This document shows, in pieces, positions 546 through 63,369 of a stretch of 64,000 bases of DNA. How positions within the stretch are numbered: position 1 is the stretch's first letter; the number at the start of each line of letters is the position of its first letter. The notes under the pieces are model-generated. The model did no database searches, was not told the origin of the DNA, and worked only from the letters and a program-made list of their open reading frames with translations. The stretch is from assembly GCF_004010195.1 (NCBI RefSeq), contig NC_057718.1:69773213-69837212 (forward strand), written 5' to 3'. A program made the translations under genes and the position numbers. Source of the stretch: Chiloscyllium plagiosum. Taxonomy: Eukaryota.

Positions 546-667
546 TGAAATAACTCCATGAAGGCCGGTATCCCATCACCAAGTCACCCTTAATTTATAT
601 TTGCTCAGTACATGTAGCTGGCTCAGAGCCAATCCCGAGAGTGAACGTAAACTCTGACACTCCTGTT

Positions 668-765
668 TATTTATTTTTTTCTTTTCTTTTTCTTTCAGTT
701 TCTACCACTAGGAAGAAAAGAAACACTCAAGTGGCCAGTGACAAGCAATGCCCTTCACATCAAAA
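668..765 (-). mobile_element. Tx1-clade LINE 3' UTR fragment (array unit 1, more diverged)
   Basis: Matches the 3' UTR at about 59160-59235 (GTGGCCAGTGACAAGCA..GCCCTTCACATCAAA), with a poly(A) tail. Confidence 0.8.
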
Positions 766-775
766 CACTCCTGGT

Positions 776-1094
776 TTTTTTTGTTTGTTTTTTTCTCTTC
801 TTTTTTTCAACAGGCCCTTCGGCCCAACAAGTCCACACTGACCCTTCGAAGAGTAACCCACCCAGACTCCTTTCCCTCTCACTAATGCACCGAACACCAT
901 GGGCAATTTAGCATAGCCAATTCACCTGACCTGCTCATCTTTGGACTGTGGGAGGAAACCGGAGCACCCGGAGGAAACCCACGCAGACACGGGGAGAATG
1001 TGCAAACTCTACACAGTCACCAGAGGCTGGAATCGAACCTGGGACCCTGGTGCTGTGAGGCAGCAGTGCTGACCACTGAGCCACCATGCTGCCC
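776..1094 (-). mobile_element. HE1 SINE with intact 5' end, truncated 3' tail and an atypical poly(A) tail (array unit 2)
   Basis: SINE body 809-1094 ends at GGGCCTGTT and is followed by about 32 nt of A-rich tail; flanked by target motifs at 766 and 1098. Confidence 0.85.
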
Positions 1095-1107
1095 TCACAC
1101 TCCTGTT

Positions 1108-1460
1108 AATTTTTAAAAATTTTTTGCTATACCAATTTCCATTTAATTAGTAGTAAGAAAAAGACTGAGGAATTAGTGACAGCTATTGCGTTTTCATACA
1201 GAAGGCACAGAATATCCCATATGACAGGGAATCACAGATTGCAGTCAGTTCAGTCACTCTCCCCCCACGGTGAGCCTGTCAAACAGGTACTCTCCCAGGC
1301 CATTCTCAGGGGCTCCCAATCTCTTCAGGTTGGTGATATGATCTCCCAGATTCTTGATCATCTTCACTTGCTTATCCAGGTAGTGTCCCTCCAGGAAGTC
1401 ACAAAGATGAGGGTCCATGTGGTCAGAGGAGAATTTGTGCAGATCCAGCAGACTCTAGTT
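1108..1460 (-). pseudogene. 5'-truncated processed ferritin (heavy/middle-chain type) pseudogene
   Basis: 1460->1254 translates [67 protein letters not shown], the ferritin C-terminus. No intron at DPH|LCDF; in-frame TAG at the conserved Gln; likely +1 G near the end (ancestral -GESD*). 3' UTR has ATTAAA at 1142-1147 and an A-rich tail at about 1108-1125. Confidence 0.93.
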
Positions 1461-1471
1461 ACACTCCTGTT

Positions 1472-3225
1472 TTTTTTTGCGGGTGTGAGACACAGTGAGA
1501 GACACAAGGTGTATGAATCTTTATTCAATTTCCACCACCAGGAAGATACACTCCTGTTTTTTTTTCTTCTTATTTTTTAACCCCCACACTACCGCCTAAC
1601 TGTGGTAGTGCTTATTTTTTCCCCAGCACCCATGGTGTGCGTGTGCAGGTGTGAGACACAGTGAGAGACACAAGGTGCATGAATCTTTATTCAATTTCCA
1701 CCACCAGGAAGATAGGAAAACACCCGGGTGGCCAGTGACAAGCACTCCCCTTCACATCAAAGGGCAGTGCTGTGTGATCAAACAGTGAGGGGGAGGGTAG
1801 GGACTAAATCAAAATAGAGTTGGAGGGAGAAATAATGCACTCCACTCCCTGCGGCGCCCACCTCTCCCTGAACAACTCCAGGGTGTTGGTGGACACCCCA
1901 TGCTCCTTCTCCAAGGACACCCGGGCCCTAACGTAACTGCGGAAGAGGGGCAGGCAGTCGGCACTAACGACCCCCTATCACTCCTGTTTATTTTTTAAAA
2001 TTTTTTTTCTTTTTCTTTTTCTTTCTTTTTTTTTCTACGAATCTTTATTCAAATTCCACTCCTATTTTTTTCTTTTCTTTTTATTGTGTATACGTATGAA
2101 ACACAGTGAAAGACACAAAGTGCACGAATTTTTTTATTCAATTTCCACCACCAGGAAGATAGGAAAACACCCGGGTGGCCAGTGACAAACACTGCCCTTC
2201 TCATCAAAGGACAGTGCTGTGTGATCAAAACAGTGAAAGGGAGGGTAGGGACTAAATCAAAATAGAGTTGGAGGAGAAATAATGCACTCCACTCCCTGCG
2301 GCGCCCACCTCTCCCTGAACAACTCCAGGGTGTTGGTCGACACCGCGTGCTCCTTCTCCAAGGACACCCGGGCCCTAACGTAACCGCGGAAGAGGGGCAG
2401 GCAGTCGGCCCTAACGAACTCCTATCACTCCTGTTTATTTGTTTTTTTTATTTTTTAATTTTTTTTTTCTTTTTTTTATATATATTTTTTTTCTTTTACA
2501 AAGTGCACGAATCTTTATTCAAATTCCACCACCAGGAAGATAGGAAAACACCCGGGTGGCCAGTGACAAACACTGCCCTTCACATCAAAGGGCAGTGCTG
2601 TGTGATCAAAACAGTGAAGGGGAGGGTAGGGACTAAATCAAAATAGAGTTGGAGGGAGAAATAATGCACTGCACTCCCTGCGGCGCCCACCTCTCCCTGA
2701 ACAGCTCCAGGGTGTTGGTCGACACCGCGTGCTCCTTCTCCAAGACACCCGGGCCCTAACGTAACTGCGGAAGAGGGGCAGGCAGTCGGCCCTAACGACC
2801 CCCTATCACTCCTGTTTATTTTTTTTTACTTTTTTTTCCTTTTTTACATTTTTTTTCCTTTTTTTTCTTTTTTTTTAAACCCCCACACTACCACCTAAGT
2901 GCGGTAGTGTTTATTTTTTTCCCAGCACCCATGGTGTGTGTGTGCAGGTGTGAGACACAGTGAAAGACACAAAGTGCACGAATCTTTATTCAGTTTCCAC
3001 CACCAGGAAGACAGGAAAACACCCGGGTGGCCAGTGACAAGCACTGCCCTTCACATCAAGGGACAGTGCTGTGTGATCAAAACAGTGAAGGGGAGGGTAG
3101 GGACTAAATCAAAATAGAATTGGAGGGAGAAATGATGCACTCCACTCCCTGCGGCGCCCACCTCTCCCTGAACAACTCCAGGGTGTTGGTCGACACCGCG
3201 TGCTCCTTCTCCAAGGACACCCGGG
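1472..3225 (-). mobile_element. Six 5'-truncated Tx1-clade LINE copies (1472-1548, 1559-1978, 1989-2056, 2067-2425, 2436-2806, 2817-3225)
   Basis: The longer units encode the ORF2 C-terminus (..DCLPLFRxYVRARVSLEKEHAVSTNTLELFRERWAPQGVECIISPSNSILI*) plus 3' UTR, matching 59046-59770. Confidence 0.85.
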
Positions 3226-3742
3226 AGCCGCTGTGTTTATGTGGTGAGTCTCGTTGAGTTACTGGTCAATGATAACCCCAAAAAGTCCGTGATAGTAACA
3301 CCATTAAATGTCAAGGGGAGGCACTGCAGCTAAATCTGGGGCCATCAACAAAACAAGAGACACCTGCTGAGGAGAAACCCACATCCAAAAGGACGTTAAT
3401 TGCCAGGCGCTGGGTGAAGGGGTACACTCTCAGAGATCTGCTTGCTCAGCAGCATGCAGCATATTCTGAGGCGATGGTGGAAGTTTGAGAGTGAGTCGTG
3501 TATTTACTCAAGCGGGGGTTTCTGCGGCACTGTGTGGAGGTTTAAATCAGTTACCAATTCCTGTTCCATTTCTTGTTTCATGATTGCTTACACACAACAA
3601 ACTAAACTGCCGACTGATACAATCCAGGCAGATTGAATTTATGTTTGAAGCATAAACCCTAAAAAGCACAATGATAAAGCCCGCTCTGTGTCATACATTA
3701 GACAATACCGTTACATACAAAAGTGCAGACAACATTCCTGTT

Positions 3743-4004
3743 TATTTTTTTTTTTTTTATTTTATTAAACAAGTTACAAAACAATTTACAAAAAACATTG
3801 ACAGCTGTACACAAAAGACAGCAGTTTTACAAGGGAGGGGAGCAGCAAAGCTAGGCCCCGAACCCTACCGTTCAACCATTTTACAGGGAGAGGAGGACAA
3901 ACCTCAAATCCCAGTTCCACATATGACAAGACAGTGACAATGACATTTGTACATTAGACAATACCGTTACATACAAAAGTGCAGACAATACAAACCCAGC
4001 AAGT
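3743..4004 (-). mobile_element. Second poly(A)-tailed 3'-end family ('family B'), probably a LINE 3' UTR
   Basis: Ends AATAAAATAAAA(A)n on the minus strand; related copy at about 60630-60856 and a short piece at 3694-3732. Confidence 0.6.
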
Positions 4005-4364
4005 CACTCCTGTTTATATTTGTTGGCCAAGGCTCCCTGATTGGCCCAGACCCAGTCCTAATCATACTCAATGAGATCCACCTGGCCAACCTCATGTCAA
4101 TCACTACAGATGACATTGTCATCCATAAACTAAAGTTCCACAAGTGATGCCAGTGTCATTTTCTTCTTGGATTTCAACCAGTTGAGGTTGAAAAGTTTTC
4201 TGCCCATCCTGTGGACAATTTCCACATACTGGGAAACTTGTTTTTGACGAGAAGAAAAATAGTGGCAATGAAAATGGAGAAAAGGGTGGGGTCATGATAT
4301 TTCTGTGCTTTATCCCTGTCTTGACCTCAAAGGATTCTGTAATATTACCGTCTTTAACATTGTA

Positions 4365-17500: not shown

Positions 17501-17736
17501 TGAAATAATTCCACACAGGCCAGTATCCTATCTCCAAGTCACCCATTATTTACATGTGGAGAGTTCTTGACATCGATCCAGCTCCCTAAGAGCCAGCTGC
17601 CAGAGTAAACAGGAAGTCTGACACTCCTGTTCTTATCTGTCATCCAGGGCTACCTAATTAGACCAGGTTAACAGTCCCAACTAGGGAACTCATATTCTAT
17701 GAGGTCCACCTGGCTGACCTCATTACAATCACTACA
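17501..17736 (-). mobile_element. Uninterrupted Gypsy 3' LTR (same family as 546-4108) with an empty target site
   Basis: Preceded on the minus strand by a polypurine tract GGGGGAAGGA (17737-17746); single CACTCCTGTT at 17622. Confidence 0.82.
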
Positions 17737-19378: not shown

Positions 19379-20640
19379 TAAGTGGTGACACCTACAATGT
19401 CCACCTCAGATTCCAAGATATCTTGAAAGCTTGATGGAGAGGGAGAACCCACAGGTTCTGCAACAGTCAGAAAAGCTGTTGAGAAGACAGACATGTTTTG
19501 TTCTCTCACTGTTTGCAAGTGTGCAGTTTTCACATGGTCCATGTTCTTATTTAGGACTGTCACACCTACCTGAACTTTATACATCATTGGACCTGACCTC
19601 ATGTTGACTATGCCTCTTACCAATGCAGGGCCATTCCTACGGTTCCTACACCAAACTTCATCTCCTGAAATAAATGTCGTTCTCACTTAGCAGAGCCTTG
19701 TGGCTGGCATTGGTATTCCTGATGTTGTATCACCCTTCCCACTCCAGGTCTGGGAAGATCAGATTTAACTTGGTGTGGATCCTCTCCCCATCAGCAACTC
19801 TGCTGGAGTTATCCCTGTAGTTTGTATGAGGGGTGGTCCTATATTCAAATAGAGACTGGGACAGTTTGGTATCAAGTGAAGCTGTAGGTTGTTTCTTTAA
19901 GGCTGTGTTCAAAGGCTGGAGAGTCAAAGGCTGGTCTGCTCTTTCTGACAGGCCATTTGATGATGGGTGGTATGGAACTGTCCTTGTACGCCTATGCCAT
20001 TTGACTTTAGGAAATACTCAAATTCCCTGCTGGTAAACAATGGCTCGTTATCTGTGACCAACATTTGGGCAGAAAATGTGTGTAGTTTTTCTGTCATTGT
20101 CCCTATGTTGAACAAATTATCTCTATACAACCAGCCACTTTGTGTAGGTATCCACAATGTTTAAGAATATGGAACCCATGAAAGGACCTGATAATCGATG
20201 TGTAATCGAGTCCAGGATTTACTCAGCCATTCCCATGAATGTGGGGGAGTTGATGGCAGTAGTTTTTGTCCAAATTGGCCTTCTGGATACGAACCCAGTA
20301 ATGCAGCTTTGTCTGCATCCAATCCTGGTCACCAGACATAACTTCTCACAACCATCTTTATTTTGGAAACCCCTGGATGACCCTGGTGGAATTCAGCCAG
20401 TATCTGGTGGTGACCTTTGCTCAGATCAATCATTCTTGTTCTCCATAATAATATGCTATCCCTGACTATGATCCGGTCTCCCTAGGTCCAAAAAGGTTTA
20501 AATTCTGGCCTTTCTATTTTCCTCATCGCCACCAGCTGTTCCAGTTCTGCCAGGATCAAACTATTTGTATCCAAAGTCGTCTGTGACTGGAAATTGGATT
20601 GTTAGTATTATTCGGGACACTGGTGTGCACTTCAGATTGA
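19378..20640 (-). mobile_element. Gypsy pol integrase region, decayed
   Basis: LVTDNEPLFTSREFEYFLKSNGI; LSQSLFEYRTTPHT; EVWCRNRRNGP..GPMMYKVQVG. Confidence 0.78.
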
Positions 20641-58840: not shown

Positions 58841-59045
58841 TAAAATTCCTAAACTAAATCTGCCAACTCTTTTTGATGTTAGTTTTAGTAACTGGTGTGT
58901 CACTGAGATAGCTCCACAGAGGCTGGTATCCCATCACCAAATCACCTTTTACTTACATGAGCATAGTACAGACATTACTCCGGCTTCCTCAAAGCCAGCT
59001 GTCAGACTGAACAAAACCTCCAGTCCCTCTGACCTTCCTCTTTAC

Positions 59046-59770
59046 TTTTCTTTTTATTTCAAGCCTAACTGCGGTAGTGCTTATTTTTTTCCCCAGCACC
59101 CATGGTGTGTGTGTGTGCAGGTGTGAGACACAGTGAGCGACACAAAGTGCACGAATCTTTATTCAAATTCCACCACCAGGAAGATAGGAAAACATCCAAG
59201 TGGCCAGTGACAAGCAGTGCCCTTCACATCAAAGGGCAATGCTGTGTGATCAAACAGTGAAGGGGAGGGCAGGGACTAAATCAAAATAGAGTTGGAGGGG
59301 GAAATAATGCACACCACTCCCTGCGGCGCCCACCTCTCCCTGAACAACTCCAGGGTGTTGGTGGACACCGCGTGCTCCTTCTCCAAGGACACCCGGGCTC
59401 TAACGTAACCGCGGAAGAGGGGCAGGCAGTCGGCCCTAACGACCCCATCCACGGCCCGCTGCCTCGACCTGTTAATGGCCAGTTTGGCCAGGCCCAGGAG
59501 CAGACCCACGAGGAGGTCTTCAGACCTGCCCTCCCTCCTCCGTACCGGGTGCCCGAAGATCAGGAGCGTGGGACTGAAGTGCAACCAAAAGCAGAGGAGG
59601 AGGCTTTTAAGAAAATCCAAAAGGGAGTGCAAACGCCCACACCCAACATACACGTGGTCCACGGACTCCACAGCGCCACAGAACAAGCAGTTGGGATGGG
59701 AGTCCGTGAACCACCGCAATCTGCGGTTGCAGGGGACTGCAGCGTGCAGCACCGTCCACCCCAGATCCCC
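59046..59770 (-). mobile_element. Tx1-clade non-LTR retrotransposon 3' end (ORF2 zinc-finger C-terminus, open from the gap to the stop at 59276)
   Basis: LGWTVLHAAVPCNRRLRWFTDSHPNCLFCGAVESVDHVYVGC..GLAKLAINRSRQRAV; CxxC-H-C motif typical of L1/Tx1 ORF2; CpG-rich, suggesting a young copy. Confidence 0.85.
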
Positions 59771-60299
59771 NNNNNNNNNNNNNNNNNNNNNNNNNNNNNN
59801 NNNNNNNNNNNNNNNNNNNNNNNNNNNNNNNNNNNNNNNNNNNNNNNNNNNNNNNNNNNNNNNNNNNNNNNNNNNNNNNNNNNNNNNNNNNNNNNNNNNN
59901 NNNNNNNNNNNNNNNNNNNNNNNNNNNNNNNNNNNNNNNNNNNNNNNNNNNNNNNNNNNNNCAATACTCAGTGCCAATATTTTTGGGAATGCTGTCAAAT
60001 AAGAATTAAATCAATTGAATGTGACAATTTCCCAAGGCATTGCTTAATTAAAGCAATGGTGATTCCAAATATCCTGGGCAATATTCAGCCCTCAATGAAC
60101 ACAGCACAGATTAACAGGTAGAAAATTATGCAAAATGACTTCTCCATTTCAACTCTCCATGGTTCATGTCAACAAACAGTATGGGACCAAACAAAAATCC
60201 AGTTACACATTGCGGTAAAAGCATTTTAAAAATTCTTTTTAAAATGGCCTAGCAAAAAGCTATCCCTCAAGCAAAATCATTGGAAAAAATACAGTTATT

Positions 60300-60460
60300 T
60301 TCTCAGTGCTGTCTGTGGGATCTTGCTCTGTACAAATTGGCTGCCACATCTCCCTGAAGGATGACACTGACTATACTTAATTGTGTTTCATTGGCTGTGA
60401 AGTGCTTTCAAATTGACTTAAGGTCATAAATATGTCACAGAAATGCAAGCCTTTCTTTTT
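60300..60460 (+). mobile_element. Deu-domain SINE remnant (SacSINE1/AmnSINE1-like)
   Basis: GCTGTCTGTGGGATCTTGCTCTGTACAAATTGGCTGCC..TTCATTGGCTGTGAAGTGCTTT..AAATGCAAG matches the recalled DeuSINE consensus. Confidence 0.6.
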
Positions 60461-60629
60461 AAATCTGAGGGTTTTTTTTTCTCTAACCAGCGAGCGGTGG
60501 GAGATGGGGAATAAAACTGGTCTCCATCAGAAAGGCAAAAACCTACTGTGGGTCAGCCAGCAATTGGTTTTAACATGACATGCCATTTTATCTCTTTACT
60601 AAAGAAGTAGCCACAATACTTGATGCTCT

Positions 60630-60856
60630 TTTATATTTTATTAAACAAATTACAAACAAATAGTTTACAAAAAACATTTACAGCTGTACATAAGAGACAG
60701 CAATGTTACAAGGGAGAGGAGCAGCAAAGCTAGGCCCCAAACCCTACCATTCAACCATTTTACAGGGAGATGAGGACAAACCTCAAATCCCAGTTCCACT
60801 TATGGCAAGACAGTGACAATAACATTTGTACATTAGACAATACTGTTACATACAAA
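60630..60856 (-). mobile_element. Family B 3'-end copy
   Basis: Colinear with about 3755-3977; abuts the TSD at 60857. Confidence 0.7.
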
Positions 60857-63369
60857 GACCTTCCTCTTTACATCTGTCAACTAGACCTCCTTGATTGGAC
60901 CAGGTTAACAGCTCCCAATCAGGGAACTCATTTTCTACAATGACCACCTGGCTAACCTTGTTACAATCACTGCACTCACAAATCTATCAAAAAGTGCTAG
61001 ATAAAGTGAGTAGGGCATGGTACTTAACTGTGTGAATAGATGCATTGAATAAAAACAATAAGATAATAAATAAGCCAGTTAGCCTGCTCTGCCACACAAT
61101 TATATCATAGCTGATTTTGATCATGAACTTGTAACCACCTTTCCCCATAACCTAAGATTCTCCTATAGGATTAAACACTGCATAGCGCAACCTTGAATAT
61201 AGTCAATGATCCAACACAGACTGATCTCTAAGGGAAAGAATTCAAAAGATAATTAACCCTCAGAAAAAACACTTCTTCTCATTGTTATGATTCAATTAGG
61301 GATCAGTAACACCCAGGAACATCATCAGCAGAACTGAGCCATGTTTTCCATAAAAATATGAATCAATGCCAAAGGTGCTCCACGCATCTCCCTGGTGACA
61401 TGGAATATTCTGGGAAATCCCCAAACAGACCTTTTGGTGAAGTATGTCTTATTAAAATTCCATTGATCTTAACAAATAAATGGATTTATAATGAATGTAC
61501 ATTGACTGGTTCCAACTCCAATAAAAAAAACTCTCTGGATTGCTTTTATTGTAGTGGTCTTGTCTCCATCAAAAACCCACAATGAGGCCAGGCATGGTTT
61601 AAGTTTCTCCACTTGTTTTGTGTCTCCAGTACTCTGATTTTTTTAAGTCAATATGGTCCAGCCTTACTATAAGCATGACAATATTTCAGTATTCATAAAC
61701 TCAGGCTAATTTGAGTTGCATTCACGGCAGATGTTTGAGTATTTAAAATCAAGGTATCCCAGTTATCCACAGTTATATATCAATCGCTAAAACCTCAATT
61801 TATATCCTAAGGCATATAAATTATGAACTAAGTTTTGACACATTCCCCAAGAAAAAAATGAATATGCATCAACCTTGTAATGAGTTTTAATTTCCTCCAG
61901 TTAAAATATTACAACATGTTATATGACTGAACAACTATCCTATCCAATAACCATCTCTCTATTGTCCAATTAAATTCACAAGTCCATCTTAGAAGTACTG
62001 GATCACTGAATCATTGCCCATTAATCACAGTTCCATTTAAAATGTGCAATATTGCTTTATGCAATGTTTTCTCAAAGTTTTCATCTGAGAATGATTAGAT
62101 TCCACAGCTCTATCTGAAAGAGGAGATGCCTTACTGTGAGTTTTCAAGTTCAATCTTTAAAACAGTCTGTTCAGATTTCAGTTTTATTTACTTGACCTAT
62201 CTAAAACTCTTTCCAGATTGTCTGTGTCCTCCTCATATTTTGGTTTCCTTTACATTCGGTCCTTTCATCCAAATAATTAACACAGATTATTAATAATTGA
62301 GGCCCCAGGAATGTTCTCATCTCACTTGTGACAGTTTGTCAAATAAAAAAATGATATTTATTGATTCTTATTTTCTATTTGATAGCCAAATCTCTAGTGA
62401 TAAGAATATATTTTTTCCTAATACCAAATCTCAAAGAGAACAACATTGTATGCTGCATGAAAAAGGGCTTGGCAAGTAGATTCTGATTTGTCAAGGCATT
62501 GTCTTGGAGAATGCACTAGGGAACAGTTATCCACAAACTTTATTTAATTTCAAAAAAAGGCAGGTTCACGCTGAATAGTTGAGGCATTGCCAAGTGAATG
62601 CAATGGTAAATATTTGTCTGACATTCTTCTGTTCAATCAAAAAAAGCACATGTTACAAAGGACATGGCCCTATATATGAATGCATATAGATAGCATCTAG
62701 CCAGCCCATATGAATCACATTGTGAGCCAAGTTAATAACATTAAAATGATTGTTTGTGTTGTGGGAGTTTAGTTTTCAGTCAGTTATACTTTTCACTTTC
62801 AAGTGGTTCAAATAGCTCCCAACCCTTGGTTCTGGACTCTGGACTTATTAATCAGAATATAATAAAAAGGCAGCAAACAGATATCTGAGGGCAAAATGAT
62901 CTCTGCATTTATTTATGTACATAAAAGTAACACAACAATATATCACAGCTATTCACTATTATAGAAGGTGCATTATCATTTATAAATACACTACTAATTA
63001 GAGTTACTATATTAGAATCACAATACACTGATAATACCCACCTCCCACTAGTAACTAAGTTGGAACTCTTGGGTCTCAGGACTATGCTCACCACTTCAAA
63101 TGTGGTTTTGGAGTTCGCTTGATGAAGTTGCTCTGGCTTGCCATCCCCTGGGCATGGAAGAGGATTTTGAGGAGCACAACGATTCAGCCTGGGTTGAGTC
63201 GACTGATGCAGTTGGGTGTGTTTTGGATCTCTCGGATATGTACTTGGTTTTTCTATACTTTGCTGGTTAGTCCGGTTCAGTCTTCACATCAGTTTGTGTC
63301 TGAGGACTTGCAGTGTTGGTCACCTTAGTCAGTGCTTCAAATTTTGTCAGCCTTGGTTCTGGTTGTCAT

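Follow-up and report, generated by a model that had tools for sequence, protein, structure and literature searches.

In crocodilians, Tx1-Mar, a long interspersed nuclear element (LINE), and SINEU, a short interspersed nuclear element (SINE), share one target, which sets a precedent for the use of LINE enzymes in trans (Kojima 2015, PMC4494074). Here we analyzed the window, a 64,000-bp stretch of Chiloscyllium plagiosum (contig NC_057718.1; C9:69773213-69837212), together with its 3.56-Gb assembly, and describe a ferritin messenger RNA (mRNA) copy that lies in a stack of Tx1-clade LINE fragments inside a split long terminal repeat (LTR). By its sequence, the insert is a spliced, A-tailed retrocopy within an 11-bp duplication, probably pasted there in trans by a target-specific LINE of the Tx1 clade. 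It is likely that such a site-choosing element delivers copies of ordinary genes to a predictable address.

The Tx1 group in the Tx1-Mar/SINEU system, as here, homes to fixed transposon positions and builds tandem stacks around a duplicated word, and Tx1-Mar likely moves the non-autonomous RNA of SINEU in trans to its own target, as we propose for this locus (PMC4494074). The cargo in crocodilians is a SINE family headed by small nuclear RNA sequence, whereas here it is a spliced protein-coding mRNA; the passages of that paper on these elements report no mRNA retrocopies at the target. The families Tx1-8_Crp and Tx1-4_AMi likewise prefer LTR retrotransposons as target, and the section that describes them states neither a position at the TATA box nor host-gene cargo (PMC4494074). 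Homing of Tx1 to LTRs is already published for crocodilians, and the new part is the host mRNA cargo.

Processed pseudogenes made by mammalian L1 share intron loss, a poly(A) tail, a duplication, 5' truncation and a T/AAA-type nick with the copies described here, and abundant housekeeping mRNAs are the source in both cases; the mammalian copies are dispersed, whereas here a large share sits at one repeat position in one orientation (PMC3747384, PMC5131818). In a stringent LINE/SINE pair the cargo shares the 3' end of the LINE. We found no match of the mRNA inserts to the 3' ends of Tx1 or of two other repeat families at the same site (TxB and TxC), and since no 3' end is shared, the choice of RNA appears to be relaxed. 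R2 is a stringent site-specific LINE that needs its own 3' end. The same need is described for TRE5-A (PMC3159450) and SART1 (PMC3747384), in contrast to the apparently relaxed choice here, and for TRE5-A it has been linked to the absence of processed pseudogenes from the host (PMC3159450). Site-specific LINEs are generally described as accepting only their own RNA, and relaxed LINEs such as L1 as loose in their choice of DNA; at this target both traits seem to be combined, and in a countable form. A 2026 preprint (10.64898/2026.06.26.734816) correlates non-mammalian retrocopy counts with CR1/Tx1 content, and its text, supplements aside, holds no occurrence of 'target site'. Beyond that correlation, our analysis names a concrete candidate enzyme family for cartilaginous-fish retrocopies. 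A literature search, with subscription papers, Repbase Reports and supplements outside its range, turned up no paper that describes mRNA retrocopies at the target site of Tx1 or another LINE.

A first-pass annotation of the window had placed a ferritin C-terminus with 3' untranslated region (UTR), ATTAAA and an A tail between two target motifs, and its coordinates proved exact. The features of the insert are:

1108-1460, minus strand: ferritin processed pseudogene, 5'-truncated, with the last two exons fused, a 3' UTR and an A-rich tail
1257-1454, minus strand: stop-free ferritin C-terminal frame of 66 amino acids; a TAG precedes it, and one extra G ends the frame early
1126-1253, minus strand: 3' UTR with ATTAAA at 1147-1142, common only to the retrocopy L033 on C18
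1108-1125, minus strand: degenerate A tail, which a DNA contig from an independent run contains as well
1461-1471, minus strand: upstream copy of the 11-bp target-site duplication
1097-1107, minus strand: downstream copy of the 11-bp target-site duplication

The word ACACTCCTGTT (plus strand) at 1461-1471 and 1097-1107 brackets the insert 1460..1108. The frame 1454..1257 matched Pfam Ferritin (PF00210) with 26.2 bits, against a cut-off of 24.5. The insert begins in exon 3, and its DPH|LCDF junction at 1407/1406 is uninterrupted, the intron being missing. Among the 20 gene-type ferritin loci fetched (L009-L027, L030), 18 are split exactly at this junction, which bears out the intron that had been presumed for the source gene family; the upstream exon of the other two is absent through a gap or contig end. 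GT..AG was seen in all three genes read whole across the junction (L013, L015, L019). ATTAAA lies 16 bases ahead of the tail (1125-1108), which consists of 11 A and 7 T. In the last exon, the copy and the nearest gene are 94.7% alike; the disabling changes are CAG>TAG at 1457-1455 and one additional G in the run of Gs around 1261-1266. On sequence grounds, the window copy is a dead processed pseudogene. The antisense open reading frame (ORF) at 1110-1580 is the reverse of ferritin and Tx1 pieces.

The same mRNA reached the target twice, on C9 and on C18. The second retrocopy, L033, is 86% identical over 194 nt and has a different 5' end, and these two retrocopies are the only assembly matches to the window 3' UTR. 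The A tail of L033, which has ATTGAA for the ATTAAA of the window copy, starts at the same base as the window tail, so that the cleavage site is fixed independently. An assembly artefact was considered and is answered by the DNA contig of the independent run, which covers the UTR and tail (1105-1281) with 3 differences; no piece crosses both junctions. The window UTR drew no reads in two RNA runs of one sample, possibly of another species, of which about 2% and 6% were read; in one of these two thinly read runs, coverage of Tx1 3' ends reached several hundred-fold.

The surroundings of the insert and the related LTRs in the window comprise the following features:

4005-4108, minus strand: 5' half of the split LTR, with TG start, CCAAT-like and TATA-like boxes and the first target word; 71% identical to the empty copy
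3743-4004, minus strand: 3' end of the second A-tailed repeat family (TxB)
1472-3225, minus strand: five stacked 5'-truncated Tx1 3' ends, each with ORF2 tail and/or 3' UTR plus A tail
776-1096, minus strand: SINE derived from transfer RNA (tRNA), 3' end shortened, A-tailed, between target words; read from the sequence
668-765, minus strand: short Tx1 3' UTR piece with A tail
546-667, minus strand: 3' half of the split LTR, with the last target word and the end ..TTTCA; 70% identical to the empty copy
17501-17736, minus strand: empty target LTR, preceded by a polypurine tract, with a single target word at 17622
19733-20481, minus strand: broken integrase remnant upstream of the empty LTR, with weak rve and Integrase_H2C2 matches, all under the cut-off
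58904-60974, minus strand: second LTR, into which TxB and Tx1 copies have inserted at the same position; its duplicated word is the diverged AAAGAGGAAGGTC

The stack at 668-4004 divides an LTR of about 235 bp (546-4108) into halves at 4108-4005 and 667-546. The empty LTR (17736-17501) displays TG..CA ends, a polypurine tract, and CCAAT-like, TATA-like and AATAA-type signals; of the Gypsy-type features, the ends and polypurine tract are seen, and the integrase matches are weak and under the cut-off. The duplicated word starts at the AAA of the TATA-like box, which, from its sequence, is likely a TATA box. With up to one mismatch the target word occurs 16 times in the window versus 6.2 +/- 2.3 in shuffles (0 of 100 reached 16), and eight of the nine exact words lie within 658-4014. 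The word differs by LTR subfamily (AACAGGAGTGT, AACAGGGGATT, AAGCAGGAATGT, AAAGAGGAAGGTC). Control DNA of 136 kb held seven LTR copies, and a sample of 30 copies taken by a 35-base word (293 matches in total) comprised 25 empty copies, 4 with inserts and 1 ambiguous. The address is one position in a multi-copy LTR, loose, and not a single fixed site. The fixed address proposed in the first-pass annotation thus holds as a recurrent LTR position, with the reservations that the LTR is multi-copy, that its word varies, and that only part of the retrocopies go there.

Target words at 1549, 1979, 2426 and 2807 separate the five Tx1 pieces, the four long ones being 92-96% alike. Tx1 ORF2 pieces exceeded the Pfam cut-offs for Exo_endo_phos (PF03372) and RVT_1 (PF00078), and zf-RVT (PF13966) was matched at E 9e-5, under its cut-off. 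The closest relative of the resident LINE comes from Heterodontus (66%). Xenopus Tx1L (UniRef 'Transposon TX1 uncharacterized 149 kDa protein') is 45% identical in the endonuclease region and 62% identical in the reverse transcriptase region of ORF2 (E 6e-90), and human L1 ORF2 gave a much poorer match (E 2e-23, from a smaller library). The target of Xenopus Tx1L is a DNA transposon, not an LTR. Tx1L belongs to the target-specific group (PMC3747384). Judged by domains and pairwise identity, the main resident is a Tx1-clade LINE. The family is young, its copies being 97-98% alike, and one near full-length copy lies within a split LTR (L186). A target-type word was seen by eye at an end of 12 of the 20 copies picked by ORF2; gaps or other repeats cut several others.

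Near full-length Tx1 copies (L186, L182, L175) start in a segment of about 65-90 nt that comes from their own 3' UTR, at 87-92%, and these 5' ends look as if they had been transcribed from an upstream stack copy. A derivation of the Tx1 5' UTR from the transcribed half of the LTR was not supported, with matches of just 12-13 nt. The tRNA-derived SINE at 776-1096 is presumably of the HE1 type. A shortened, A-tailed SINE bounded by target words was also found at L105:3290-3507, and the RNA of both was possibly taken by the Tx1 machinery.

A target-first sample, defined by an A tail plus the word, gave 129 places, and 90 loci were fetched, covering 92 of the 100 matches listed. These loci yielded 158 A-tailed units between words: by their 3' ends, 107 were Tx1, 8 TxB and 1 TxC, and the remaining units were LTR sequence (14), SINE (1) and other sequence (27). 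Host RNA accounts for about 1-4% of the stack units in this sample. At L044 we found the C-terminus of a sorting nexin (Pfam Vps5), which we take to be SNX1/2-type, 97% identical to its parent; two GT..AG introns of the parent are missing from the copy, and the parent lacks a genomic A tract. A unique UTR-like, A-tailed insert with AATAAA lies between target words at L047:1044-1507, and four more units are short, unique A-tailed inserts between words; inserts of this kind include L098, L122 and L137. The 14 LTR units (for example L041) combine the downstream half of the LTR itself with an A tail; the L041 unit differs from its host LTR and so looks inserted rather than duplicated.

A cargo-first census used a pattern across the ferritin exon junction and returned 22 places. 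Spliced ferritin retrocopies at the LTR target or in its stacks made up 11 of the 22, eight of which have LTR halves detected by BLAST around them (L197, L200, which is the window copy, L202, L203, L206, L210, L213 and L218). By area, on generous assumptions, an on-target share of 0.15% is expected, and one of 1.9% if all TAAA words are equal, giving P values of 8e-26 and 8e-14, respectively, for 11 of 22. Beyond the census, L033, L241/L242 (one event) and L262 are further on-target ferritin events; L232, L260, L263 and L277 are off target, and L037 is ambiguous.

Target-blind Pfam searches with TCTP, the L7Ae family and cyclophilins gave eight non-ferritin retrocopies. Intron loss was checked against the parent for L221, L227 and L281, and the rest were judged by eye. 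None of one TCTP copy, one of two L7Ae-family copies and none of five cyclophilin copies lay in the LTR. The L7Ae-family copy inside the LTR, L227, presumably RPL30-type, has one intron removed. The cyclophilin retrocopy L281 (L311:544-2770, G000:C3, minus strand) has lost five introns and retains an intact ORF; it shares one duplicated word at TATAAA with a Tx1 copy in unique, non-LTR DNA, a link between mRNA cargo and Tx1 that does not depend on the LTR. This stack hints that the TATA word, not the LTR as such, is read.

The A tail is absent from the parent in five retrocopies (the SNX-type copy, ferritin L197, ferritin H L241, the RPL30-type copy and the cyclophilin copy). Altogether, at least 16 mRNA insertions at the target, from at least six genes or paralogues, were found, each a one-off event. 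Further mRNA-derived inserts at the motif genome-wide, which the first-pass annotation had called for, thus exist: ferritin (11 of 22), SNX1/2-type, RPL30-type and ferritin H. Its claim that site-specific Tx1 makes processed pseudogenes stands as regards a co-resident Tx1-clade LINE and mRNA cargo at the target, and the Tx1 family is put forward as enzyme source on the basis of shared junctions.

Target-primed reverse transcription is an established mechanism, and the junctions suggest how it may run here. All cargo at the target lies in LTR orientation, ends in A and sits within a duplication of 9-15 bp that opens with the TATA-like AAA. An apurinic/apyrimidinic-type (APE) endonuclease would nick the bottom strand at this AAA; the freed T-rich end would pair with any poly(A) tail and serve as primer for reverse transcription; the duplication would arise from a second nick some 11-13 bases downstream. 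Recognition of RNA would be relaxed and poly(A)-based, as in mammalian L1, with abundant host mRNAs taken at perhaps 1-4% of events. The target word is regenerated with each insertion, so that inserts stack, and the 5' truncations are independent. Solitary mRNA copies are also found in otherwise empty LTRs (L197, L202, L213). The endonuclease may either read the word itself or be tethered through factors bound to the TATA, and the TATAAA case outside the LTR agrees with both. A LINE that asks nothing of its RNA beyond a poly(A) tail, but favors a defined DNA word, would qualify as a candidate for RNA-templated gene insertion.

Several results weigh against a Tx1-directed origin or narrow its reach. 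Verified spliced mRNA amounts to only 1 of the 158 target-picked units. In the ferritin census, three on-target calls are softer (L211 and L215 in Tx1 stacks, L217 by eye), and the other 11 of the 22 copies are off target, one of them (L216) a mere 68-bp match that was still counted. On- and off-target ferritin copies are alike in age, with median identities of 94.7 versus 93.9% to the nearest gene (p 0.83). Seven of the eight Pfam-picked non-ferritin retrocopies lie outside the LTR, L281 stacked with Tx1 and six elsewhere. With half of the ferritin copies and the majority of the other retrocopies off target, ferritin is the most favorable case, and across the genome the on-target share may be far lower than that of ferritin. 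Many retrocopies probably arise by a second route that is not targeted. A Tx1 copy inside a cyclophilin 3' UTR (L298) indicates that target specificity is loose. A parent carrying the window copy's 3' UTR was not found in two assembly DNA searches and 11 ferritin-cluster stretches (about 109 kb); it may be in a gap, lost, or overlooked by the seeded search. The notion that the tail is not genomic in the parent is accordingly borne out by the five other retrocopies named above. Lastly, TxB (8 of 158) and TxC (1 of 158) 3' ends occur at the same word, so at least two further A-tailed families use this site and may have donated the enzyme.

The last point opens the way to an enzyme supplied by another target-sharing element, be it TxB, TxC or another Tx1 family, with the abundant Tx1 a mere co-resident. 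TxB does lie directly behind the mRNA copies L203 and L227 and ahead of L033. The TxB and TxC pieces obtained, however, contain no ORF, whereas the Tx1 family studied makes up 107 of the 158 units, is young (97-98%) and is the only family with which the cyclophilin copy is stacked. We consider another donor unlikely, and the principle of site-directed mRNA retrocopying would stand even then. It is very unlikely that an ordinary L1-type LINE made the retrocopies and landed at T/AAA words and stack A tails, the Tx1 association being secondary. The T/AAA nick site is near the L1 consensus, the stacks are A-rich, and off-target retrocopies have duplications unrelated to the target word, some of them A-rich (for example L198); but in 74 kb of control DNA only about 1.9% of the TAAA words are target words, whereas 11 of 22 copies were observed there. 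Moreover, no A tail lies upstream of L197, L202, L203, L210, L213, L241 or L227, each of which abuts the LTR 5' half, and the duplications of these seven copies end where Tx1 duplications end.

Retrocopies bounded by LTR sequence, as here, are also known from LTR-mediated retroposition (Tan et al. 2016, PMC5131818), in which the LTR element would have captured the mRNA by template switching, and flanking LTR sequence is the criterion used in that study. Such copies lie between two LTRs and lack a tail and duplication, whereas here a single LTR is split and the cargo has its own A tail, duplication and 5' truncation, hallmarks that the same paper assigns to non-LTR retroposition. The duplications and tails already contradict this origin, which we regard as highly improbable, and the case cautions that LTR-flanked retrocopies can be LINE products. 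Hardly more credible is an arrival of the ferritin piece with Tx1 RNA in one event, by template jump or transduction, instead of a separate trans insertion. The ferritin piece does stand head to tail with Tx1 pieces, and L1-type template jumps are known (PMC4494074); yet the target word is present on both sides of each cargo, and L197, L202 and L213 are sole inserts, with no Tx1 sequence. Even in a one-event insertion the enzyme would still be that of Tx1.

Under insertion in trans by Tx1, a full-length copy that entered an empty LTR first is predicted to adjoin the CCAAT/TATA promoter of that LTR. Two ferritin ORFs, L197 and L241/L242, are full-length and intact, and both follow the CCAAT/TATA boxes of the LTR directly. 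The former (L197:1046-1780, G000:C3) is full-length with 5' UTR, holds a 176-amino-acid ORF, is 98% identical to the parent cluster and is the sole insert in its LTR, within a 15-bp duplication. The latter (L241:1524-2335, G000:C35; L242, G000:C19), which we take to be ferritin H-type, has a 177-amino-acid ORF that is 99% identical to a four-exon parent, with three introns removed; one 3.25-kb block holds it on two contigs at 99.5%. It stands directly behind the CCAAT/TATAAT of the LTR, starts 9 nt ahead of the ATG and is without the iron-response element, which the parent has according to Rfam. The intact ORFs of L197 and L241 are explained by their youth (98-99% identical to their parents). 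It is possible, though in our view doubtful, that the system acts as a retrogene factory, in which the LINE accepts poly(A) RNA of any kind and places it in sense orientation directly behind the LTR promoter, so that L197 and L241/L242 would be expressed, the latter independently of iron. This offers a testable route by which retrocopies could gain a promoter at birth.

Intron-containing ferritin genes form two large tandem clusters of more than 10 copies each on G000:C39 at 4.60-4.75 Mb and 10.58-10.74 Mb, and the cluster listing also names C30 at 15.43 Mb. One ferritin copy (L022, G000:C29328) is apparently without the first two introns and keeps the third. In six non-LTR ferritin copies (L204, L207, L214, L232, L260 and L037), the 5' end of an HE1-type SINE lies directly behind the A tail on the same strand.
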